IMG/VR virus record: IMGVR_UViG_3300045988_143860
Coordinates: 1-36,637 of that record
Reading direction: 5' to 3' (one strand)
From: a virus
Length of the DNA stretch: 36,637 bases
Made by a program: the position numbers and the translations under genes. Every line of letters starts with the position of its first letter. Position 1 is the stretch's first letter. The notes under the pieces were generated by a model. The model did not search any database and was not told the DNA's origin. It was given only the letters and a program-made list of their open reading frames with translations. Of this stretch, positions 13,126-36,511 are shown in pieces.

Positions 13126-13272
13126 CTATCCCTTCCGGGCAGTCCTCCGCTTCGGTGCAGGAGTCGACTCCTGCACTTCGTCGAAGGGCTTCCATTCGGA
13201 ATCGAGGGTGGCCGCCAGCGTGTCAGACACGTTGATGACCACCCCCGACACGGAGTTGATCAGACGCGGCAT
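13126..13272 (-). CDS. Unlisted 48-aa ORF between capsid and connector genes
   Basis: Its ATG overlaps the capsid TGA (TGATG). Peptide MPRLINSVSGVVINVSDTLAATLDSEWKPFDEVQESTPAPKRRTARKG. Hand-counted third-position GC about 79%. Confidence 0.5.
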   Translation of the reverse strand: MPRLINSVSGVVINVSDTLAATLDSEWKPFDEVQESTPAPKRRTARKG

Positions 13273-14198
13273 CAGAGCTTGTCCTCGATGACCGCGAAGC
13301 GGTTCACGAAGGCGTACCAGCCGTAGACGATCTCGAGGCGGAGCGCGACCTGGTTCTTCCTCTTGAGGTCGCCCTGCCCGTCCGGATCACCGAAGCGGAT
13401 CAGTTCGATCGGGAGGTCACGCTGGATGCCCCAGCGGATGCCGTTCTGGAAGTCGCCGACGATCGCGCGGACCTTCGTGTCGGTCGCTTCCGGCGTGCCG
13501 GAGACCGTGTCTCCGACTGCGGTCGGGACGCCCATGAATGAGGTGATGTCGGTGCCGAGCCCGATCTGCGGGTAGCGCAGATCCGACGTCGCACCCGAGC
13601 CGTCCTTGCGCTTGAGGTTGGCGAGCGTCCACGTGAACTTCGGGTCGAAGGCCGCGCCGGTGACCATCGCCGGATTGAGGGAATCGGCGATGATGAGGCC
13701 CGCGGCGGCACGGAAGTCGTCGTCGATCTCAGCGGTTCCAGCACCGATCTCGACGCGCTTGGTCGTCGCGCCGATGTAGTTGGTCCACGTCGAGATTTCA
13801 GCGCCATTCAGCGGGTTGATCCGGTGGTAGACGCCGAGGTCGAGGGCGCGCGAGAGGGCGACCATTCCAGCGTCTGCGAGTTCCTGCAGGACGTTTAGCT
13901 GGTAGTCCTCGTCAGCCCATTCAACCTCGTTGGAGAACCGCATCGTGACCTGCGCCTTGTGAGGGACTGCGGTCACGGACCCGAACGAGCCCTTCGTCGA
14001 GCCCTTGTCGGCGTTCTCCTCGACGAACTCCGCGCGGGGCAGATCGTTGAAGGTGAGGATGTCGGCCTTGCCGAAGCGCATCGGCTCAGCGCCGGAGAGC
14101 TTCGCGACGGTCGAGGTGCTCATGGTCTTCTTGACCATGCCGTTGAGGATTTCGCGCGGCATGAGGACCTGTGCGCTGGTGGAATCGAAGATTGCCAT
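13272..14198 (-). CDS. Major capsid protein (HK97-fold type)
   Basis: 308 aa immediately after the scaffold gene. Size and position typical. No prohead protease present. Confidence 0.88.
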   Translation of the reverse strand: MAIFDSTSAQVLMPREILNGMVKKTMSTSTVAKLSGAEPMRFGKADILTFNDLPRAEFVEENADKGSTKGSFGSVTAVPHKAQVTMRFSNEVEWADEDYQLNVLQELADAGMVALSRALDLGVYHRINPLNGAEISTWTNYIGATTKRVEIGAGTAEIDDDFRAAAGLIIADSLNPAMVTGAAFDPKFTWTLANLKRKDGSGATSDLRYPQIGLGTDITSFMGVPTAVGDTVSGTPEATDTKVRAIVGDFQNGIRWGIQRDLPIELIRFGDPDGQGDLKRKNQVALRLEIVYGWYAFVNRFAVIEDKL

Positions 14199-14218: not shown

Positions 14219-14674
14219 TCAGTTGCCGAAGAGCTCGTGGACGAGTCGTTGCTCGGCGGTGAGGGATGAAGTGGGCGCGTCCCCCTGCTTGGGGAGGATC
14301 GGCGCTGACGGCTTGCGGACGAAGTCCTTGAGGGCTTCACCGTGAGCCTGGAGTTCTTCCAGGGTGTTCCCTCGCAGGAGTTCTGCGGGGACGCCTGTCT
14401 CCTCGGAGACTTGCGACCGCCACTGGGCGCGCTGCTGGTCGGCCTCGATCTGGTCGAGGCGCGCCTGCGCCTGTGCGAGCTTCGAGGCTGTGTCATCGGC
14501 CTGGGCTGCCTTCGCCTTGAGATCGTCATAGTCCGCGTACTTGCGGCGCTCACGCTCGAGGCGCTTGCTGATGATCTGGTCGAGAGCTTCTTGACTGGTG
14601 ATCGCCTCGAACTCGGGACCCTTCGCCTCATCAGGCGTCGCCTCGCCGCTGTCGGACGTTGACTGGTCGGTCAT
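14219..14674 (-). CDS. Scaffolding protein
   Basis: 151 aa, acidic N-terminus, long helical charged repeats (AQAQARLDQIEADQQRAQW), directly upstream of the capsid gene. Confidence 0.7.
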   Translation of the reverse strand: MTDQSTSDSGEATPDEAKGPEFEAITSQEALDQIISKRLERERRKYADYDDLKAKAAQADDTASKLAQAQARLDQIEADQQRAQWRSQVSEETGVPAELLRGNTLEELQAHGEALKDFVRKPSAPILPKQGDAPTSSLTAEQRLVHELFGN

Positions 14675-14744
14675 CGTGTCTCCTTAATCCGTTTTCGGGC
14701 CGTCGCCCACTGCTTCCCGCTGAACCCCAGCGGTCAGGGAGGCA

Positions 14745-14778
14745 TAAGAAAACCCGCCAACCGGAACAGGAAGGCGGG
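14745..14778 (-). terminator. Hairpin + T-run downstream of the putative immunity gene
   Basis: CCCGCC (14753-14758) / GGCGGG (14773-14778), 14-nt loop. On the - strand it is followed by TTTTCTT. Confidence 0.4.
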
Positions 14779-14809
14779 CTGGTGTATGCGGTTTGGTGGG
14801 TATGCGAAA

Positions 14810-14835
14810 CCCCCACTGTCTCCGGACCGTGGGGG
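14810..14835 (-). terminator. Hairpin immediately after the stop of ORF 14847-15182
   Basis: CCCCCAC (14810-14816) / GTGGGGG (14829-14835), 12-nt loop, TTT follows on the - strand. Confidence 0.4.
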
Positions 14836-14846
14836 TGTGGTTGGGG

Positions 14847-15182
14847 TTAAGCCGTGCGTGTGCTACGCGCTCGCAACTGCTGGTCTAGGAACAGTAACAC
14901 CCCTTCAAGGTCGTTCTCCTCGTAATCCCGCTCCCACTCGGGGAGGAGCGATTCAACGGCTTCGAGTAGATCATCGGACACTCGGATGTTGTCCTCTTGG
15001 ATCTGCCAGCACACGTCCTCTAACGCACCGAACTCGTCATCTGATTCACAGTAGCGGACCAAGCCGTCACGACGTTTCTGCCCAGAGGGGCCAACGCCCT
15101 CGAACCATTCTTCAAGCAGCCGATAGAAAAGGTCTCGCGTGAACCTCGCGGCCTCTCTGGGATCCTGTTGCTGCGCGTACAT
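14847..15182 (-). CDS. Small acidic protein, putative immunity protein for the upstream MuF-toxin
   Basis: 111 aa, helical and acidic, 17 nt after the toxin-domain ORF, followed by two hairpins. TAGAAT lies 7 nt upstream of its ATG. Interrupts the otherwise canonical portal-MuF-scaffold-capsid order. Confidence 0.5.
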   Translation of the reverse strand: MYAQQQDPREAARFTRDLFYRLLEEWFEGVGPSGQKRRDGLVRYCESDDEFGALEDVCWQIQEDNIRVSDDLLEAVESLLPEWERDYEENDLEGVLLFLDQQLRARSTRTA

Positions 15183-15199
15183 GGCGTTAATTCTACCCT

Positions 15200-16483
15200 T
15201 CAGGCCTCTGGGAATATAGAAGCAACTCGATATCCGCTCTTTCGTCGCTTTACGTGGACGATCACCGAAACACCACGGAATGTGGCGGTGACGTCTCCAA
15301 AGACTCCGTCACTCCATGCTGTTCGGAGCACGTGTTCAGCCGCCTTTACAACATCCTCTTCAGTCCACCCCTCGGGCAATGTTGGGCGGGATGCGATCCA
15401 TCCGTAGCCGTGGAGGTGGCCACCTTTGATCTCGGGTCCAACGCGCTCGGAGTACAGTGCATGGTTGAGGCTCTTCGCGTCGAGTGCAGGCAGGTCATTA
15501 GGCCAGTTTCTTGGGCGTTGGTATGGATTTCGCGGCGGGACTTTCGCTCCTGAGGCGCGAAGGTCCGGGTCGGCATTGTAACGGGTGATGATCTCGTTGC
15601 GGTGGGTGTCGTACTTGCTCAGATCCACCGTCCCATCCCCGCCACCTTTTCCGCTTCGCACCTTTCCCAACTGGAGCCTGCGAGGGATTTTCGACATGCC
15701 TCGCCCGGTGCCGTCCGAACGTCCTTGGTCCCCGATGCCATCCTTATACGCATCAGGGTGGAGACGACGCATGACGGCCAAGAGAGTATGCGAGTCGTTG
15801 GGGTCTTCGCCCATGTTCATGACGGCCTCACGCGCCTGTTGATAGCGGTCATACATGGCGTCAGGGTCGTACCCGTCAATGTGGGCCTTCTTGCGGTCCC
15901 ACGAGGGGACGATCTCACAGTCACAATCGTGGTGAAACTCGTTGCCGCTACCCTTAATGCCAGCCAACTTTTCCGACAGGTACACCCACCCGCGCGAGGC
16001 GAGCATCGCGCAGAACGCGCAGGTCTTCGCACCGCGCGGAACGCGCGCATAACGCGGCTCGGCAGGATCGAAAGCGACGTTGCGGGCGATCGTGTCCCGG
16101 CTGGCGTATTTGACCCACATTTGCGTCGCCGACGCTAGCGCGCCGAGAACCCTGTCAGGCTCACCAAGCCACAATGGGCCGACGATCGCGCGCGTGGACG
16201 CCTGGACCTGAGAAGCCGGCACACCGTCAGAAATCGTCGGCGAATATGCGGGCAGGCCCGGTGTTTTCGCTCGCTGCTCCTCCCACCACTCGACCGCCGC
16301 GACCGCCGCGACATTCCCGTAGGTTGCGACAAGGTCAGGGAGGAAGTCGAGGAGGGCCTGACGACACTCTGCAGGATTCGATACATCCAGACCGCGCCAG
16401 AACCTCGAGAGGTCCCGCTGAGCCAGACGCACGGCCTCGTCAGTCCCACGCGAGAGTCTTGAGACTGCTCGGCGATCCATCAT
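15200..16483 (-). CDS. MuF-like head morphogenesis protein fused to a C-terminal EndoU-like toxin domain
   Basis: N-terminal ~250 aa are typical of actinophage MuF-like minor capsid proteins (VPRGAKTCAFCAMLASRGWVY...FHHDCDCEIVP). A Gly/Arg linker follows. C-terminus: NHALYSERVGPEIKGGHLHGYGW..LPEGWTEEDVVKAAEHVL...GVSVIVHVKRRKSGYRVASIFPEA, resembling bacterial EndoU nucleases. Confidence 0.72.
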   Translation of the reverse strand: MMDRRAVSRLSRGTDEAVRLAQRDLSRFWRGLDVSNPAECRQALLDFLPDLVATYGNVAAVAAVEWWEEQRAKTPGLPAYSPTISDGVPASQVQASTRAIVGPLWLGEPDRVLGALASATQMWVKYASRDTIARNVAFDPAEPRYARVPRGAKTCAFCAMLASRGWVYLSEKLAGIKGSGNEFHHDCDCEIVPSWDRKKAHIDGYDPDAMYDRYQQAREAVMNMGEDPNDSHTLLAVMRRLHPDAYKDGIGDQGRSDGTGRGMSKIPRRLQLGKVRSGKGGGDGTVDLSKYDTHRNEIITRYNADPDLRASGAKVPPRNPYQRPRNWPNDLPALDAKSLNHALYSERVGPEIKGGHLHGYGWIASRPTLPEGWTEEDVVKAAEHVLRTAWSDGVFGDVTATFRGVSVIVHVKRRKSGYRVASIFPEA

Positions 16484-17865
16484 GCGACCTCGGGTTCAGT
16501 CCCGGCCAGACGATCAAGGACTCCTACGGCGGCGCTGCGACGGCGCTCGACCTGTATCTGGTCGATTTCCTGCTGCGTGAACCCGGCTCGCCGCATGCCA
16601 ACAGTGGTTTCTGGGATCTCCGGCATCGCCTGAGCGATCTTGACGATGAAGTCCGAGGAGGCCTGGGGGGAAACGTAGCGTGCGGGCGTCCAGTTGATCG
16701 CGAGTTTCCACGACTCGGCGGGCGGCTCAGACAATCCATCGCGGACCATGACGATGTCGTCGACGACGCGGCGCAGTGGGTCAGCGAAAAGCCTCCACTG
16801 GTATTCGGCCTCGTCAGACAATGCATGCTCCGCGGCCTGCATCGCATCTGCCGACGCGGGATTGTCCGCGAACAGGCCGACAGACGACTGGGGGAGTCCG
16901 GTCGCTGCGCAGAAGTTCTGCGCAAGCTGGCGGTACATGGACAGGTGAGGGTCCATGTTCATTTGCGTGAACTGTCCGACCTCAGGCCTGTCGCCTTCCT
17001 CGTTGACGGTCAGGCCAAGGATTCGGCCCGTGATTGCCGTCCACCGCTCCATGTCTTTGTACACCTTCTCGTCCGCCCCCAGGATGTATCGCTGCGGGCT
17101 GGAGAAGAACTCGGCGGAGGTCTCAGTGCGTACGAGAGTACGGATCGCCGCGTCAGTCAGGTACCTAACCTCTCTGGTGATCCTGGAAGACCCGAAGGGC
17201 CTGGACAGTTGAGGGTTGTAGGCGAGCAACTCGACGAGGACTCGCCCCGTCGGATTCTCCAGGCGCTCCATTGACCATGAGCTGCCAGATCGCTCGAGGA
17301 CGATCGTCCACTCAGGCAGGTAGAGAGTCGCTGACGAGGGCGCGAACGACTTCGGGTTCGTGTAGTCCGTTGAGGACTCGTTGATCGCAAGCGCCGCAGA
17401 CAAGCGACGCAGCCTGCGATCCCACACGCCCGTCGTCCACCTCGCATCGCGCGCCTGCACCATCACCGCAGGCTCTCCACGCGACGTATCGCCAGCGGCG
17501 ACAGTGATAAACGCGCATGAGGACTTGTAAGCCGAGTTGATCGCCTGAATCAGCTCGGTGTCGAACTGATTACGGACGAGGATCTCGCCGACCTCAAACG
17601 GGTCAAGCTGACCAGACAGGGAATAGCCCTCGAAGACATGCTTGCGTGCGAGAGCATTGACGGCTTTCTCCGGCCACCCGAGAGCCGCACGAACCTTGCT
17701 CATCTGCGGCGGAATCGAGATCCCGAGGTCGGTGAACGTGCGGTGACCGTCGTAATAGACGTTCAGGAGCTCATTCTTCACCGCCTTCGCATCAATCCTC
17801 TTCCACATGGCATTGAGGACCGACTGCTCGGCCTCTGTCAGACCCTTCATGACTGGAGCACTCAC
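16480..17865 (-). CDS. Portal protein
   Basis: 461 aa between large terminase and MuF-like gene, with 4-nt overlaps on both sides. Confidence 0.9.
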   Translation of the reverse strand: MSAPVMKGLTEAEQSVLNAMWKRIDAKAVKNELLNVYYDGHRTFTDLGISIPPQMSKVRAALGWPEKAVNALARKHVFEGYSLSGQLDPFEVGEILVRNQFDTELIQAINSAYKSSCAFITVAAGDTSRGEPAVMVQARDARWTTGVWDRRLRRLSAALAINESSTDYTNPKSFAPSSATLYLPEWTIVLERSGSSWSMERLENPTGRVLVELLAYNPQLSRPFGSSRITREVRYLTDAAIRTLVRTETSAEFFSSPQRYILGADEKVYKDMERWTAITGRILGLTVNEEGDRPEVGQFTQMNMDPHLSMYRQLAQNFCAATGLPQSSVGLFADNPASADAMQAAEHALSDEAEYQWRLFADPLRRVVDDIVMVRDGLSEPPAESWKLAINWTPARYVSPQASSDFIVKIAQAMPEIPETTVGMRRAGFTQQEIDQIQVERRRSAAVGVLDRLAGTEPEVA

Positions 17866-19352
17866 AGTACGTACATCCCCTTCCTATCCCCGTCGCCTCG
17901 CGGCCTCCGCTTGGACGTTCGCACAGCCCAGAGCGCCGCAGACACGGCCTCCATCGGCGTCTCATCACCGTCACTCGTCGACGCCGTCCACCCCCATGAG
18001 CCGTCACGCCCACGCTTCTCCTTGTCACACACCGACACCGACCGCTCGAGAGCGTCATCAGGCGGCGCTACAGGGTGAGTGACCGACTTGTCGCGGACAG
18101 CGTCCAAGAAGAGCGCGTTGGCCGCAAAATACTCGCGCGTCCCCATAATGTGCACGACACGCCTTGGCACCTTGCGCTTCAGCAAGGCATCCGCGAGGGC
18201 CTGGCTTCCAGCGCCGCCGAGGAGGGCGATCATGCTCGTCGTCTTCCATCTGTCGGCCAGCCAGTCGGCGACAGCGGCGACACCGGCGTCCGTGCGGCCC
18301 GAGAAGGCATCGATCAGCTCGACGTGTGCCCCGGTGTCTGTGCGGACAGCTCCCGCGAGAGTCTGGCGCAGACCATCAGCAGAAAAGGCGATCGCGAACG
18401 TCCTGACACCGTCGCCTGGCGGTTCACTGACCGCTGTCTCCTCCCACTGGAGTGGAGTGATGAGGCGACTTGCGCCCGCATCGTCCGCCCAAATCCCGAG
18501 GCGATCCTGCTCGAACTTCTCCTTCGTGTACGTCTCGAACTCACCCTGGACGACATCGTGATTGATGAACGCATTCCATGATGGATTCGCTGTCCACCGC
18601 GTGTACTCGGAGGCTGGATCGTAGTCAGGTGATGTCTTGTCAGCCGACCACTCGATCCACGCTGTGGACGTTGACTCGCCATTGATTGCCGACCGTCGGA
18701 CCGAGTCGAAGGTGTAGCAATCATCCTCTTCTTGTGGTGGCGTACCGACGAGCCACACCTGCGGGTTCTCACGCGCCGACATTGTCGAGTTGATCGACGT
18801 CCACGCGCGCGACCCAAGGATCTGCGCCTCGTCCAAGAGCAGACAATCCGACGAGAAGCCTTTGCCTCCAGCGCCGGACCGTGCCTTGAACTTCACCTTC
18901 GATCCGTTCGTGAAGCGGATGGACTCCCTGCCGAACGCATTCATGATCCCGTTCCTTGGGATGCGGTTCCGCAGCCACTGGTTCTCGTCCCTCTCGATGA
19001 CTTCCATCATCTTCTCGAAGGTCTCGCGCGCCGTGTCCTGCTGGTGCGCCGAAATCACGATCCGCCGCTCACAAAAGACCAGCGCACCACCAAAGGAACG
19101 CCAGATAAGGATCTCCGTCTTCCCGTTCTGGCGGGCGATCGACACTCCGACGCGCTTCGCCGCCCACGTCCCATCCGACCGTTCCCCAAGAGACGTCTCG
19201 AAAACATGCTCCTGCCAGCCGAGGAGATTCGTTCCACCCATCGCCGCGAGATCGACGACGTCCTGCCATGAATTAGCCCGAGCGCCTCCCGGATGCACCA
19301 GCACCCGAGGTGGAGCCTCGCCGAGCAGCGCGACGGGCTGCAAGTTCGTCAA
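17862..19352 (-). CDS. terL: Terminase large subunit
   Basis: 496 aa. Walker A-like GVSIARQNGKTEI, Walker B LLLDEAQ, C-terminal nuclease-like half. Start uncertain: ATG 19352 overlaps the upstream ORF by 80 nt; in-frame GTGs at 19304 and 19298. Confidence 0.9.
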   Translation of the reverse strand: MTNLQPVALLGEAPPRVLVHPGGARANSWQDVVDLAAMGGTNLLGWQEHVFETSLGERSDGTWAAKRVGVSIARQNGKTEILIWRSFGGALVFCERRIVISAHQQDTARETFEKMMEVIERDENQWLRNRIPRNGIMNAFGRESIRFTNGSKVKFKARSGAGGKGFSSDCLLLDEAQILGSRAWTSINSTMSARENPQVWLVGTPPQEEDDCYTFDSVRRSAINGESTSTAWIEWSADKTSPDYDPASEYTRWTANPSWNAFINHDVVQGEFETYTKEKFEQDRLGIWADDAGASRLITPLQWEETAVSEPPGDGVRTFAIAFSADGLRQTLAGAVRTDTGAHVELIDAFSGRTDAGVAAVADWLADRWKTTSMIALLGGAGSQALADALLKRKVPRRVVHIMGTREYFAANALFLDAVRDKSVTHPVAPPDDALERSVSVCDKEKRGRDGSWGWTASTSDGDETPMEAVSAALWAVRTSKRRPRGDGDRKGMYVL

Positions 19353-29100: not shown

Positions 29101-30513
29101 TTACGCGGCCCCATCTAAGTTTTCGTATTCGAACAATTGCTGGTTTTCGGCCATGATCCGGATTGCGGTCGCTGCCTGTTGTGGGACGACTCCGTTGCCC
29201 AGGGCTTTCAGTTGGAGTTGACGCGATATCCCGATTTCTGGACTCGTCACATGCCCAGGTGGTAGCCCCATCATCCACTCGACAAACGCGGGATTGAGCA
29301 AAGCTCTGCCGGTATTGCCGATCACGGTCGGATCAGGCGCAGACATGCCAAAGGCTTGTTCTTGCACGCGGATTGCGTCTTTGAATTCGCCGAACTTCTC
29401 ATACTTGACCAAGTCATAAAACGACTTCCGCGCCTTGTTGAACCGCTCGCTTTTACGCCCGTCAAGCTGCGAACCTGTCGGAGTGGGAAGAAGATGGGGG
29501 AGCAAAGTATTTAACGGCACTGAATTACGGCGAAGCTGGGAAGCACACGGCGCATCAGCATCTTGCGTCGTCGGAGTTGGCAGAAGATGCTCACACTGGT
29601 CATCAAGCCCGATCGCGTGGTTGCCCTGCTTTTGTTTTTCGGGGTGACGTGACCCGCGGCTCCCAAGATTCGCCGCTGGGGTGGCGAACATTTTCCGTTC
29701 CTCCACCCGACCACCGGTCTGCAATAAGCCATTTTCGACTAGTATCCGAAGATCGCTGACCGTGGTACGCCCAGGACGTTTGCACATGTGGTTCTCGGGC
29801 GTATTCCACGAAAAGGTCGCCGTCGGAGTAGGAAGAAAATTTTCCCCTTCCGCTTCTCCTACAACCGTCGGACGGGCGGTGTTCAACGCCCGATCGAGCC
29901 ACCACCGATCCCCATGCGGGAAACCGACTACGAACACGCGGGCGCGCCGATGGCAGGCGCCGACGTCTGAAGCGCGAAGGCTTGCCCATTGTGCGTCATA
30001 CCCGATTGAGGCCAAGTCCCCCAGAACACGTCCGAGAGCCCTGAGAACAGGTCTGTCTGCCCCGTTTCCCAGACGTCCCTCTCTTTGTTCCATGAGGCTA
30101 AAAGCGTTAGCACTAAGAGCTCCTAAAACGTTCTCCCACACAACCAAGTGGGGTCGGATAGTTCGTACCGCGTTAAACATTGATTCCCACAACCCCGACC
30201 GTGTTCCCGGCTTCATGCCCGCACGAACTCCGGCGACGCTGAGGTCTTGGCATGGCGACCCGCCAGCGATCACATCGACCGGTTCAACGTGAGTCCAATC
30301 GACTTGTGTAACGTCACCAAGGTTTTCAACATTGGGATGGTGGTGTTTCAAGATTGCTTTCGGCCCCGGCTCAATATCGCTCACCCACGCGAGCTCACCC
30401 GAATCCAAAGCCATCTGAACACCAAGGTCGAGTCCCCCGTACCCGGAGAACAGGCTCCCGATCGTGTACGGGCCCCGGCGATGCCCAGACTGAGCAATTT
30501 GGCTGGGGGTCAC
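29101..30513 (-). CDS. dcm: DNA (cytosine-5) methyltransferase, orphan
   Basis: Motif I SLFSGYGGLDLG, motif IV GGSPCQDLSVAG, motif VI WENVLG, motif VIII RRARVFVVG, motif X LGNGVVPQQA. Long variable region. GTG start after GGAGGAG. No adjacent nuclease. Confidence 0.93.
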   Translation of the reverse strand: MTPSQIAQSGHRRGPYTIGSLFSGYGGLDLGVQMALDSGELAWVSDIEPGPKAILKHHHPNVENLGDVTQVDWTHVEPVDVIAGGSPCQDLSVAGVRAGMKPGTRSGLWESMFNAVRTIRPHLVVWENVLGALSANAFSLMEQREGRLGNGADRPVLRALGRVLGDLASIGYDAQWASLRASDVGACHRRARVFVVGFPHGDRWWLDRALNTARPTVVGEAEGENFLPTPTATFSWNTPENHMCKRPGRTTVSDLRILVENGLLQTGGRVEERKMFATPAANLGSRGSRHPEKQKQGNHAIGLDDQCEHLLPTPTTQDADAPCASQLRRNSVPLNTLLPHLLPTPTGSQLDGRKSERFNKARKSFYDLVKYEKFGEFKDAIRVQEQAFGMSAPDPTVIGNTGRALLNPAFVEWMMGLPPGHVTSPEIGISRQLQLKALGNGVVPQQAATAIRIMAENQQLFEYENLDGAA

Positions 30514-33364: not shown

Positions 33365-33396
33365 TTTTAGGGTCGTGCGTGTCTCAATTAGGGTAG
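33341..33396. promoter_or_regulatory. Operator repeats of the genetic switch
   Basis: CCCTAATTAGGGTA (33341-33354, perfect 12-bp palindrome), CAATTTTAGGGTC (33362-33374), TCAATTAGGGTAG (33384-33396). A further CCAATTGG at 33311-33318. Confidence 0.6.
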
Positions 33397-33406
33397 TCTG
33401 CGGAGT

Positions 33407-33820
33407 ATGGGCAGGAAGTCGCTTACCGTCGGAGACTTTTCGCGCGCTGTCGCTCGCGCACTGTCGGAGCAAGCAGAGTACATTGGGAAGAGTCAGGCCG
33501 CTATCGCGAGAGAAACGGGAATCTCTCAGAATCGCGTTAACCTCATCATGAGGGCGGAGCGGGCGATCACCGTGGAAGAGACGCGAATTATCTGCGAAGC
33601 GCTAGGCATTTCCGTCCTGAGCGTCCTCCGCGACGCCGAAGCAATGTGGACACGTGATCAGCGCGCCGATAACGTTGTCGACTTCCCGCACACGCAGGAA
33701 GAGAACCTACCCGACTTCACCAAACTCGCCGCACGCAAAGTCACCAACCGCCCAGAATGGGAAAAACGACAAGCCCTCGATGACATTGGCGAAGAAAACC
33801 AAGACCCAGTAGATTCTTAA
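33407..33820 (+). CDS. cI-like XRE-family repressor
   Basis: 137 aa. HTH SQAAIARETGISQNRVNLIMRAERAITVEETRIICEALG. Divergent from the cro-like gene. TAGTCT lies 7 nt upstream of the ATG and there is no usable SD. Confidence 0.8.
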   Translation: MGRKSLTVGDFSRAVARALSEQAEYIGKSQAAIARETGISQNRVNLIMRAERAITVEETRIICEALGISVLSVLRDAEAMWTRDQRADNVVDFPHTQEENLPDFTKLAARKVTNRPEWEKRQALDDIGEENQDPVDS

Positions 33821-33844: not shown

Positions 33845-34945
33845 ATGGAGTTCACCGACGCGCTCGCCGCTCTTGCCGAAAAAGTTCGCACTCAGTACGA
33901 ACTGATTGAAACGGAAGAAGCGACAAAGAATGCTTTTATCATGCCGTTCATCTCGACAGTCCTCGGCTACGACGTATTCAACCCGCAAGAAGTCATCCCA
34001 GAATTCACTGCCGACATCGGCGTTAAACGTGGCGAAAAAGTCGACTATGCAATCTGCAACGGTGAGAAAGTCCAGATACTCATTGAATGCAAGAAGATCA
34101 ACGGTCAGTTAAGCCTTGAACATGCGGGTCAGCTCTTCCGATACTTCTCTGTCACCGAAGCAAGAATCGCGATCCTGACAAACGGAAAAGTCTGGAACTT
34201 CTACACTGACCTTGACGCCCCTAACAAGATGGACGATAAGCCTTTCCTTGTTCTCGACCTTGGAGACGTCGATGAAGTCCTACTGCCGGAACTGAAGAAA
34301 CTCACGAAAGATAGCTTTGACCTCGAAAGCATTGTATCTGCCGCAGAAGAGCTTAAGTATCTTGGTGCGATCCGTCGCGCTATCGCTGCTGAATTCAAAG
34401 AGCCGAGCCTCGATTTCGTGAGACTCTTGACCTCACGCGTTTATGATGGTCGATTCACGCCTGCGATCCAGGATAAGTTCCGCCCGCTGGTCGAAAAGGC
34501 TCTCCGTCAATTCCTCAATGAGCGAGTGAATGATCGGATCAAGACTGCCCTCGATGCTGGGGATGGGGCGCCGGTTCCGCTAACGGTTGCTGTTCAAGTG
34601 CCAGTCATGGAAGTCGAAGAAGAGCCAGAGACTGAAGAAGCATCAAGTGACGGTATTGAGACCACAGAAGAAGAACTTTTCGCGTACCGGATTATCAAGG
34701 CGATCGCGTGCGCTGAAGTTGCGCAAGACCGCATTGCGTACCGCGATGTTAAGAGCTACTTCTCGGTGCTCCTTGATGATAATAACCGTAAGCCGATTGC
34801 GCGTTGCTACTTCAACTCGAAGACGCGAAAGTGGATCTCATTCATTGATGAAGACCGGAGCGAAACGCGCTACGAGCTTGAAACCATCGAAGATATCTAC
34901 CTACACGCCGAAGCGATTCGTGAGGCTGTCAGGATGTACCGATAG
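33845..34945 (+). CDS. HsdR_N-type PD-(D/E)xK nuclease-like protein (366 aa), function unknown
   Basis: TEEATKNAFIMPFISTVLGYD...GEKVDYAI...VQILIECKK...ILTNGKVWNFY matches the type I restriction HsdR N-terminal / PD-(D/E)xK pattern. Helical middle, acidic linker, C-terminal ~90-aa domain (RDVKSYFSVLLDDNNRKPIARCYF). Confidence 0.8.
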   Translation: MEFTDALAALAEKVRTQYELIETEEATKNAFIMPFISTVLGYDVFNPQEVIPEFTADIGVKRGEKVDYAICNGEKVQILIECKKINGQLSLEHAGQLFRYFSVTEARIAILTNGKVWNFYTDLDAPNKMDDKPFLVLDLGDVDEVLLPELKKLTKDSFDLESIVSAAEELKYLGAIRRAIAAEFKEPSLDFVRLLTSRVYDGRFTPAIQDKFRPLVEKALRQFLNERVNDRIKTALDAGDGAPVPLTVAVQVPVMEVEEEPETEEASSDGIETTEEELFAYRIIKAIACAEVAQDRIAYRDVKSYFSVLLDDNNRKPIARCYFNSKTRKWISFIDEDRSETRYELETIEDIYLHAEAIREAVRMYR

Positions 34946-35647: not shown

Positions 35648-36307
35648 ATGTACGCATTTATAGATGACTCCGGCGATGCCGGAATGAAATTCAAGCGAGG
35701 CTCCTCAACACATCTCGTGTTGTCGATGTGCCTATTCCAATCCGAGCAAGCGTGGAAATCAACAGAAACCGCGCTAGCTGACTTGCCTGACTACATGAAA
35801 ACAGTAGGAGAATTTAAACACTCCAAAATGAAAGACCGGCACAAAGAAGCATTTTTCAAACAAATCGAAAACGAAGACTTCTATGTCCGCGCAATAATCG
35901 TCGACAAAACAAAGCTAACAAGCCAATTCCTAGCCAGCCACGCCAACGAGATGAAAACTTACTTTCTGATGCAGCTATTAACCCACACGTGGGGGCAGGT
36001 GCAAGACTGCAAAATCGTCATCGACGGGGCGGACTTACAAGCCTTTGGAATGAAAAGCACTGACTACCTGTTCGAAAAAGCCAACGAAAATAGGAAGATT
36101 AGAGTCGCTTCGGAAGTAATCTGCGCAGACTCCAAAGATTCGTTGGGGTTACAGTTAGCCGACATGGTGGCCGGAACTATAATGGCAGGACTTAAAAAAG
36201 GTCAACCCATGATGGATACTGACAGGTGGCTACAGGTGCGCCAGCGAGCCTACCAGCCTGAAGGCAACTGGTGGTTGTTTAGGAGCCGATCAGGGCAAAG
36301 TAAATGA
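35648..36307 (+). CDS. DUF3800-family protein
   Basis: N-terminal MYAFIDDSGD and C-terminal DSKDSLGLQLADMVAG are the DUF3800 hallmarks. Sampled lines are 37-48% GC. Last gene before attR. Confidence 0.8.
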   Translation: MYAFIDDSGDAGMKFKRGSSTHLVLSMCLFQSEQAWKSTETALADLPDYMKTVGEFKHSKMKDRHKEAFFKQIENEDFYVRAIIVDKTKLTSQFLASHANEMKTYFLMQLLTHTWGQVQDCKIVIDGADLQAFGMKSTDYLFEKANENRKIRVASEVICADSKDSLGLQLADMVAGTIMAGLKKGQPMMDTDRWLQVRQRAYQPEGNWWLFRSRSGQSK

Positions 36308-36511
36308 GCCTATCCATGTGCTTGTCATGGCACGCCACCATACGGAGACTATTCGGCTCAATACTCATTTTAGCGTTGCTAGCACGTTTTGTAAATAGAT
36401 GACTTTTCTTGTCCTACCCCTAGTGTAGGAATAAGGACTGTGGATGATAGGCGTATTGAATGGCTCGAAAGCGTCGCCCGTGTGGCAGGCGTGGGAGCGG
36501 TTGGCGGGCTA

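Follow-up and report, generated by a model that had tools for sequence, protein, structure and literature searches.

The window analysed here is the whole 36,637-nucleotide stretch of the virus record IMGVR_UViG_3300045988_143860 (positions 1 to 36,637). The locus under study lies in its head module on the minus strand, where the portal gene is followed by a gene for a 427-aa protein, which joins a MuF-type head-protein domain to a predicted EndoU-type ribonuclease (RNase) domain, and by a 111-aa open reading frame (ORF) that is a candidate immunity gene. The order terminase, portal, 427-aa ORF, 111-aa ORF, scaffold and major capsid is of the standard siphophage type. Since the window also encodes a tyrosine integrase (121–1350), a CHAP endolysin, tail genes and helix-turn-helix (HTH) regulators, the virus is a temperate phage or prophage. 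It is a temperate siphophage of Schaalia (Actinomycetaceae), a human-associated actinomycete; the nearest N-terminal domain of the 427-aa protein is that of Actinomyces phage LC001, whose host is Schaalia odontolytica. At the DNA level, megablast against 50,697 phage records found no relatives of the region, and an Rfam scan of the MuF-toxin region gave no match. The features of the locus are as follows.

17862–19352 (−): large terminase gene
16480–17865 (−): portal gene (PF05133 SPP1_portal, E 4.7e-14)
15200–16483 (−): MuF4/VG15-EndoU fusion gene, 427 aa plus stop (ORF and domain searches)
15833–16483 (−): VG15/MuF4-type N-terminal head-protein domain, residues 1–217 (PF25310, E 1e-70)
15527–15832 (−): Gly/Arg/Asp-rich linker, residues 218–319 (composition)
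15203–15526 (−): compact EndoU-type (predicted toxin) RNase domain, residues 320–427 (profile homology, AlphaFold2 model)
15190–15195 (−): -10-like hexamer TAGAAT, ending 7 nt ahead of the small-ORF ATG
14847–15182 (−): 111-aa acidic protein, candidate cognate immunity protein (isoelectric point (pI) 4.25)
14745–14836 (−): two G+C-rich hairpins 3' of the small ORF, the second at 14751–14780 and followed by TTTTCTT
14219–14674 (−): scaffolding protein gene (weak DUF4355 match and position; strong AAGGAG Shine-Dalgarno sequence)
13272–14198 (−): major capsid protein gene (its homologue in contig L003, described below, carries PF05065 Phage_capsid)

The start codon (ATG) of the 427-aa gene and the stop codon of the portal gene overlap by 4 nt, and the spacer between the 427-aa and 111-aa ORFs is 17 nt long (AGGGTAGAATTAACGCC). 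The N-terminal domain of the 427-aa protein is assigned to VG15 by Pfam over the residues listed above. Its Cys/His core, C155-x2-C158 ... H184-x2-C187-x-C189, is invariant in alignment A3, a profile of 22 VG15-family members, and a CxxC...HxxCxC cluster of this kind is presumably typical of MuF-like proteins. Comparison of A3 with the first 266 aa of mycobacteriophage Angel gp4 by hhalign gave a probability of 98.4% and an E value of 6e-15. Angel gp4 is the seed of the "MuF4" family, which was tied to Phage_Mu_F (MuF1) by HHsearch (PMC5576092). Rothia phage Spartoi gp4, annotated as a MuF-like domain protein, is 43% identical over residues 80–246. The Pfam scan gave no direct PF04233 (Phage_Mu_F) match for the 427-aa protein. 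These comparisons support the domain as a MuF4 member by our test and as a MuF-superfamily member by citation (PMC5576092). The linker that follows contains 14 Gly and 12 Arg in 102 residues and has no family match in the Pfam scan.

The C-terminal extension comprises 210 aa in total, and the predicted RNase domain takes up about 108 of them (residues 320–427) when the conserved WPxDLPxL lead-in, which belongs to the domain, is counted. A word-indexed homologue search with this domain returned a single relative. An exhaustive search of 1.84 billion representative proteins returned 74 matches, of which 73 are genuine (E ≤ 1e-3); P0006 (2099 aa, 20 repeats) was a spurious match caused by its repeats and was removed. 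Most of the 73 homologues are 390–430 aa long, with a VG15 N-terminus and the domain at the very C-terminus. When the domains of 49 relatives were aligned (A1), 44 matched PF14436 (EndoU_bacteria) at E ≤ 1, the best at 9e-12, and a few exceeded the gathering score of 25.3 bits (P0012, 30.6 bits; P0013, 26.4 bits; L037, 26.2 bits). The family profile, searched against 5.8 billion sequences, retrieved 14 PF14436-annotated proteins with E values of 3e-12 to 2e-8, and PF14436 proteins lacking MuF share the domain. Alignment of A1 with A2, which consists of 12 PF14436 proteins scoring 43–45 bits on the Pfam model, gave an hhalign probability of 99.55% and an E value of 2.2e-23 over 95 columns with both histidines aligned. 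In this pairing NHALYSE falls on AHILYGD, KGGH falls on GGGH, and the S422 column falls on the Thr of VVTAYP.

H341 and H356, located 15 residues apart, are the only invariant columns among the 49 aligned domains, and the family consensus reads WPxDLPxLxAKxWNHILYGx(n)GGHLxGYGWx(5)EFPxxW...RVxS/TxFP. S422 is located on the last strand, in a column occupied by Ser or Thr in 47 of the 49 sequences; a semi-conserved Ser/Thr on the terminal β-strand has been described for EndoU-like proteins (2026 preprint 10.64898/2026.08.28.747851). The predicted catalytic codons are at 15461–15463 (H341), 15416–15418 (H356), and 15218–15220 (S422). By sequence comparison, the C-terminal domain is a compact member of the EndoU family that retains the conserved His-His-Ser/Thr set, and the assignment is solid, having been reached by transitive and profile evidence and not by direct hmmscan. 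Bifidobacterium phage PMBT6 is the one entry among the 50,697 phage records to have the toxin domain (41% identical), in a protein annotated as "hypothetical". This protein and the relatives found are all annotated as hypothetical or as "head maturation protease", so the EndoU subfamily described here escapes routine annotation.

The initial annotation of this region, made from the nucleotide sequence, is largely borne out by these results. The layout it described, with the 427-aa ORF after the portal, the 111-aa ORF 17 nt further on and then scaffold and capsid, agrees with the ORF coordinates, and the Gly/Arg-rich linker is evident from its composition. The MuF-like N-terminus was recovered through homology to the MuF4 seed and not through PF04233 directly, and the EndoU-type identity through the PF14436 matches of the relatives and the profile alignment. 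The C-terminal domain, put at ~95 aa, is present with the motifs quoted for it but is about 108 aa long. The hmmscan proposed there against EndoU_bacteria and Phage_Mu_F yielded no direct match for the window's own protein.

The structure of the RNase domain was predicted by AlphaFold2 with an alignment, giving a predicted local distance difference test score (pLDDT) of 93.6 and a predicted template modelling (pTM) score of 0.85; the single-sequence prediction, with a pLDDT of 50, was unusable. The model is of the α+β type, in which a short helix and a hairpin bearing the histidines are followed by a long helix and a three-strand meander. As modelled, it looks like an EndoU domain whose N-terminal module is strongly reduced. 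Searches of PDB sequences with the profiles A1 and A2 gave no match, even for the bona fide EndoU relatives.

The 111-aa protein is acidic, with a pI of 4.25 as compared with 8.3 for the basic RNase domain, and belongs to no Pfam, PHROG or NCBIfam family. Only three close homologue clusters of it were found among 5.8 billion proteins, and a metagenome scan with the protein returned no relative. The ratio of nonsynonymous to synonymous substitution rates (dN/dS) of the small ORF is 0.15–0.2, also against an orphan copy in L003, which indicates that the ORF is under purifying selection. An adjacent acidic ORF (pI 4.1–4.6) was found behind each of nine further toxin alleles, at −10 to +15 nt from the toxin stop codon. 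These alleles are seven from IMG/VR together with those of L007, L008, and PMBT6, the last of which shares its allele with one IMG/VR entry. The small ORFs are 90–105 aa long in the eight alleles where they are seen complete, and the ORF of L007 is cut by the contig end. The short MuF gene of Rothia phage Spartoi is directly followed by the scaffold gene, without a small ORF.

The relationship between the two genes is clearest where alleles have been exchanged. P0001 is a mosaic. Over its first 129 residues it shares 97.7% identity with P0008 and 36.8% with the window protein; over the last 88, which start at NHALYSE, it shares 100% identity with the window protein and 53% with P0008. The small ORF behind P0001 (in L005) is of the window type, and a different ORF lies behind P0008 (in L007). 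The MuF-toxin gene at L005:162–1415 is called as two ORFs (198 aa with VG15, and 217 aa), possibly owing to a frameshift or an assembly error. At the protein level the window toxin allele is 100% identical in independent samples and occurs on two backbones. In L004 the similarity to the window stops at the end of the small ORF, so the exchange unit is exactly the toxin domain plus the small ORF. The EndoU domain and the 111-aa ORF form one exchangeable cassette.

Displacement of the cassette was observed in L003 (Logan SRR30814732 contig, 1–1373), whose identity to the window, from 15418 up to and including the capsid genes, is 87%. The order in L003 is the end of a larger protein with a papain-like Cys/His domain, a DUF7675 gene, an EndoU remnant, an intact 111-aa ORF, scaffold, and capsid. 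The remnant begins exactly at the H356 codon and thus lacks H341. A Phage_Mu_F protein from a low-G+C phage has a C-terminus that shares 43% identity with the papain-like domain; the gene for this protein is located after a portal gene and is likewise followed by DUF7675. MuF-Tox-PL1 fusions were noted in 2012. Because the L003 cassette pairs the two, DUF7675 is a candidate immunity family for MuF-linked papain-like (Tox-PL1-type) domains. A further remnant of the window-type locus is present in the chromosome of Schaalia turicensis UMB0250, at the following position.

L001:6805–9823, equivalent to L012 from 6002 onwards (NZ_PKKJ01000001.1, equivalent to IMGVR_UViG_2808606747_000002): UMB0250 remnant

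A piece of 1973 bp in this chromosome is 98.6% identical to window positions 14333–16305. Its toxin gene has lost the 5' end and its scaffold gene the 3' end, and the small ORF between them is intact. Next come a stand-alone gene for a papain-like domain (196 aa) and DUF7675, and the set is placed between a truncated major facilitator superfamily (MFS) gene and the integrase of another prophage. From its gene content it looks like an orphan toxin/immunity array. Taken together, the co-transfer of the small ORF with the toxin domain, its retention as an orphan after displacement, its purifying selection, and the presence of an acidic ORF of its own behind every allele support the 111-aa ORF as the cognate partner, and hence candidate immunity protein, of the EndoU domain. 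It is the probable antidote to the predicted EndoU toxin.

The upstream region of the small ORF suggests that it can be expressed by itself. Nearly all structural genes of the window have an AAGGAG/GGAGG sequence, and the small ORF has no Shine-Dalgarno sequence. The element GGGTAGAAT is placed such that a transcript would begin at the A of the small-ORF ATG, and it is invariant in five homologous loci, one of which is at 81% identity. A TANNNT motif at −12/−13 recurs in four other alleles that have different small ORFs. Such a -10-like box in a leaderless placement occurs in only 5 of the 42 window genes, among them the integrase and an HTH regulator. In the HTH gene at 33407–33820, GGGTAGTCT at 33390–33409 (+) ends 7 nt ahead of the ATG, again without a Shine-Dalgarno sequence; this layout is the same as that of the 111-aa ORF and suggests a shared class of leaderless, lysogen-expressed promoters in the phage. 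Two strong hairpins lie 3' of the small ORF, and the second, with its U-tract, is terminator-like. The region as a whole has a folding z-score of only −1.7, with no more terminators than expected by chance. One would not expect a terminator in the middle of a late structural operon; it may mark the boundary of a moron-like unit or lend stability to the mRNA upstream. Overall, the sequence features suggest that the small ORF is a moron-like unit able to be expressed in the lysogen.

With regard to this second gene, the initial annotation had pointed out an acidic ORF, a TAGAAT hexamer 7 nt ahead of its ATG, and the possibility of independent expression. The acidity and the position of the hexamer were verified, and independent expression gains from the conservation of the -10-like box, its placement for a leaderless mRNA, and the lack of a Shine-Dalgarno sequence. 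The proposal of a candidate immunity gene is strengthened by the allele comparisons, although the protein matches no known immunity family. The statement that MuF-toxin/immunity pairs are a described but functionally unresolved class in temperate phages accords with the literature (PMC3482391, PMC5576092, PMC11699363).

We consider it probable that the locus is a MuF-family polymorphic toxin module of a temperate Schaalia siphophage. It has the sequence features by which MuF polymorphic toxins are recognised: a MuF-superfamily N-terminus, a temperate-phage head module in which the gene comes straight after the portal, a C-terminal extension of at least 100 aa with a toxin domain also found outside MuF, and a downstream ORF of less than 150 aa that varies with the toxin. 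Polymorphism is seen as one backbone with several toxins and one toxin on several backbones (the mosaic of P0001, P0008, and the window, and the L003 cassette). In the proposed mechanism, the MuF domain would bring the 427-aa protein into the procapsid at the portal, with few copies packaged; this step is modelled on SPP1 gp7, as cited in PMC5576092. By analogy with EndoU toxins, the C-terminal domain would cleave RNA endonucleolytically without metal, the most likely target being tRNA or another RNA, and the cut ends would carry 2',3'-cyclic phosphates. Any cell without the antidote would be open to attack by the RNase, whether the enzyme is ejected into it with the DNA or set free at lysis. 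The 111-aa protein would bind the basic RNase domain and block its active site, as acidic partners do in other polymorphic toxin pairs, and would thereby protect the producing cell during assembly. Given its own -10 box for a leaderless mRNA and the terminator-like hairpin, the protein is probably made in the lysogen as well, where it would protect against incoming toxin. Ecologically, the module could serve as a weapon between strains, as a take-over factor that is injected, or for addiction.

Several results weigh against this interpretation. Queries of 106–126 aa covering the window's own C-terminal domain had no match in Pfam (E ≤ 1), PHROGs or NCBIfam, nor by phmmer against PDB, so that even this permissive threshold, let alone the PF14436 gathering score, was not reached. 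The Pfam matches of the relatives are confined to the C-terminal half of the PF14436 model. The window allele departs from the family at two nearly invariant positions, YGD to YSE (G to S) and EFP to TLP (F to L), which explains its missing Pfam match. Foldseek searches of the AlphaFold2 model against PDB and BFVD gave no match at E ≤ 0.001; the best matches, all weak, were the contact-dependent inhibition (CDI) tRNase toxins 7m5f_C and 6cp9 and RelE, with template modelling (TM) scores of 0.3–0.4. For the N-terminal domain, the VG15 profile did not align significantly with SPP1 gp7 by hhalign, and the packaging analogy therefore relies on the published MuF4-to-MuF1 HHsearch link (PMC5576092). 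On the side of the small ORF, the 111-aa protein matches no known immunity family, and the immunity candidates of different alleles have no mutual homology detectable by blastp or hhalign. A lead to MafI (NF033691) was rejected, as the score was 13.3 bits (E 0.055) against a cut-off of 31, with E values of ~0.06 in two homologues and no match in a third. A two-hexamer sigma-70 scan of the region found no promoter, and the promoter argument accordingly draws only on the -10 box. In Bifidobacterium-type alleles the small ORF overlaps the toxin gene and is preceded by a Shine-Dalgarno sequence, which means that independent expression is not a general feature.

A first alternative is that the packaged MuF-EndoU protein is not an inter-bacterial toxin but a take-over or counter-defence effector, which would reach the newly infected cell together with the DNA and cleave host RNA, to stop translation or destroy defence RNAs for the benefit of the phage. 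The small protein would then only guard the cell producing the phage, at a late stage of infection, and shield the lysogen from superinfection. The anatomy would be the same; MuF-fused effector domains have been proposed as co-injected conflict proteins (PMC5512222), and the biological role of MuF toxins has been stated to be unknown (PMC11699363). In PMBT6, moreover, the MuF-EndoU gene is followed by a 105-aa acidic ORF and directly afterwards by a tRNA-Tyr gene (L010:5350–5432; MK932884.1 19368–19450), an arrangement that would be sensible if the RNase cuts tRNA during infection. The swapping of alleles together with their cognate ORFs, the retention of orphan immunity genes, and the remnant arrays are, however, the signature of conflict between strains and not of a fixed host take-over, and many close relatives do with a short MuF. 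We regard this explanation as a possible one, if doubtful. It appears improbable that the two genes are an addiction or abortive-infection toxin-antitoxin pair serving to stabilise the prophage, without ever being delivered by virions. The persistence in UMB0250, beside another prophage, of the piece with truncated toxin gene, intact small ORF, and partial scaffold gene would agree with such a pair, as would the promoter-like element of the small ORF. The toxin is nevertheless always fused to a head protein in the late structural operon directly after the portal, a placement needless for such a module. As for the antidote, it looks like a stable acidic protein and is not recognisable as a labile antitoxin carrying a DNA-binding domain.

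Two further explanations concern the individual domains and are less probable still. The lack of a direct Pfam match, the two altered positions, the lack of a significant structural match, and the absence of a family for the small ORF would be expected if the C-terminal domain were catalytically dead or a structural RNA/DNA-binding appendage, and the 111-aa ORF an unrelated moron or assembly chaperone. We consider this very unlikely in view of the retention of both histidines and the Ser/Thr, the complete protein identity of the allele in independent samples on two backbones, and the small ORF, which switches together with the toxin allele and is absent behind the short MuF. The remaining explanation, in which the N-terminal domain is a capsid maturation protease and the C-terminal part its cleaved-off pro-domain, is scarcely credible. 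It derives from labels: PHROG 193, 13257, and 1752, which the N-terminal domain matches, carry the name "head maturation protease", as do Angel gp4 and Propionibacterium phage E6 gp5 in RefSeq. The Pfam scan gave no protease family match for the VG15 domain, whose conserved motif is the Cys/His cluster that we take to be typical of MuF-like proteins. Spartoi gp4 is annotated as MuF-like, and Angel gp4 is the published MuF4 seed (PMC5576092). The label "head maturation protease", widespread on PF25310/PHROG 193 proteins (for example NC_012788 gp4 and NC_041894 gp5), probably propagates an error that hides toxin fusions.

Considered as a MuF-family polymorphic toxin module, the locus has close precedents. 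MuF-linked toxins were predicted in 2012 (Zhang et al., PMC3482391) and catalogued in 2017 with EndoU_bacteria among their domains, including a MuF4-EndoU protein of Bifidobacterium bifidum with a 113-aa extension (Jamet et al., PMC5576092). The B. bifidum prophage protein resembles that of the window in its MuF4-type N-terminus, the position of its gene directly after the portal, its temperate phage, its EndoU domain of ~110 aa, and the small ORF (<150 aa) downstream. The window differs in having Schaalia as host, an allele below Pfam detection, and an immunity candidate unrelated in sequence; in addition, the Bifidobacterium alleles are translationally coupled, whereas the window small ORF appears to be a leaderless unit. 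The experimentally characterised MuF toxins are Apk2 and Bxa (PMC12226406, PMC11699363). These share with the window locus the MuF N-terminal domain, the location among head-morphogenesis genes, and the adjacent small immunity gene or genes, the products of which neutralise by binding in Apk2 and Bxa. The toxin domain is a (p)ppApp synthetase in Apk2 and an ADP-ribosyltransferase in Bxa, each with an additional enzymatic immunity protein, whereas the window has a predicted RNase and a single non-enzymatic candidate. As far as the literature was covered, it contains no MuF-linked EndoU with an experimental test. SPP1 gp7, a PF04233 minor head protein, is similar in having its gene after the portal and in its presumed portal-bound, packaged, and DNA-associated role. 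It has no toxin extension and no direct similarity to the VG15 profile, and the link to it runs only through the published comparison of the MuF superfamily.

Among EndoU toxins, the closest model is the antibacterial CdiA-CT(STECO31)/CdiI pair (PDB 5HKQ), in which the catalytic residues H187 and H204 are 17 residues apart (Michalska et al. 2018, as reported in PMC9086364). Both are of the EndoU family and have two His ~15–17 residues apart (15 in the window domain and 17 in STECO31) and a Ser/Thr near the C-terminus. The STECO31 toxin is neutralised by a small cognate protein, and its activity as a metal-independent tRNA anticodon nuclease, as given in that source, is the likely model for the activity of the window domain. 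The STECO31 domain has two full α/β subdomains, whereas the N-terminal module of the window domain is strongly reduced in the predicted structure. Delivery also differs, by type V secretion in the former and presumably by a phage head protein in the latter, and the window domain has no significant sequence or Foldseek match to solved structures. The PMBT6 tRNA-Tyr gene might be a replacement or decoy, as bacterial EndoU toxins cut tRNA anticodon loops, but this is pure speculation.

The orphan modules of CDI/Rhs systems (Poole et al. 2011, as cited in PMC5576092) offer a second comparison. They resemble L003, where a displaced toxin fragment and an intact immunity gene lie downstream of a new pair, and they also resemble the 196-aa protein and DUF7675 of L001/L012, where a toxin domain without a delivery domain precedes an immunity gene. 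The CDI/Rhs orphans are found in secretion-system loci, whereas those described here lie in a phage head-gene cluster and a prophage remnant. We tentatively suggest, as a rather speculative extension, that the MuF locus of these actinomycete phages is a virus-borne counterpart of CDI/Rhs loci. Toxin/immunity cassettes would be exchanged at a junction beside the histidine that comes first in the active site, remnants of displaced toxins would stay behind, selection would maintain their immunity genes, and the immunity gene would be expressed in the lysogen as a leaderless moron with a terminator of its own. In that case virions would deliver an RNase into cells, and lysogens, even strains with a prophage scrap such as UMB0250, would be selected to keep immunity genes against the toxins of related phages, amounting to kin discrimination mediated by phage particles.

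The locus is a well-supported new example of the already described MuF-toxin class, and the MuF4-EndoU combination has already been published (PMC5576092). The compact Pfam-invisible allele, the new immunity candidate family, the examples of displacement and orphans at the MuF locus, and the prediction of a leaderless promoter are modestly new relative to the literature covered. Temperate phages of the human microbiota commonly carry MuF toxins, of which only the alarmone-synthetase and ADP-ribosyltransferase types have been tested so far. The present locus is a compact system of a 108-aa predicted RNase and a 111-aa partner with clear predicted catalytic residues. Natural material for comparison is at hand: two backbones bearing one and the same toxin, a displaced remnant whose immunity gene survives as an orphan, and a scrap of the phage in a bacterial chromosome that keeps the pair. 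The locus also makes the specific prediction of a leaderless transcript starting at 15182 in lysogens.

Elsewhere in the window, a C-5 cytosine DNA methyltransferase is encoded at 29101–30513 (−) (PF00145, E 8e-30). At the lysogeny end of the phage, a gene for an HSDR_N-domain protein (33845–34945) adjoins a DUF3800 gene (35648–36307, +), and a DUF3800-IX RNA motif (RF02968, 44 bits) is located on the opposite strand at 36296–36364. The DUF3800 and HSDR_N genes are possible accessory or defence genes.

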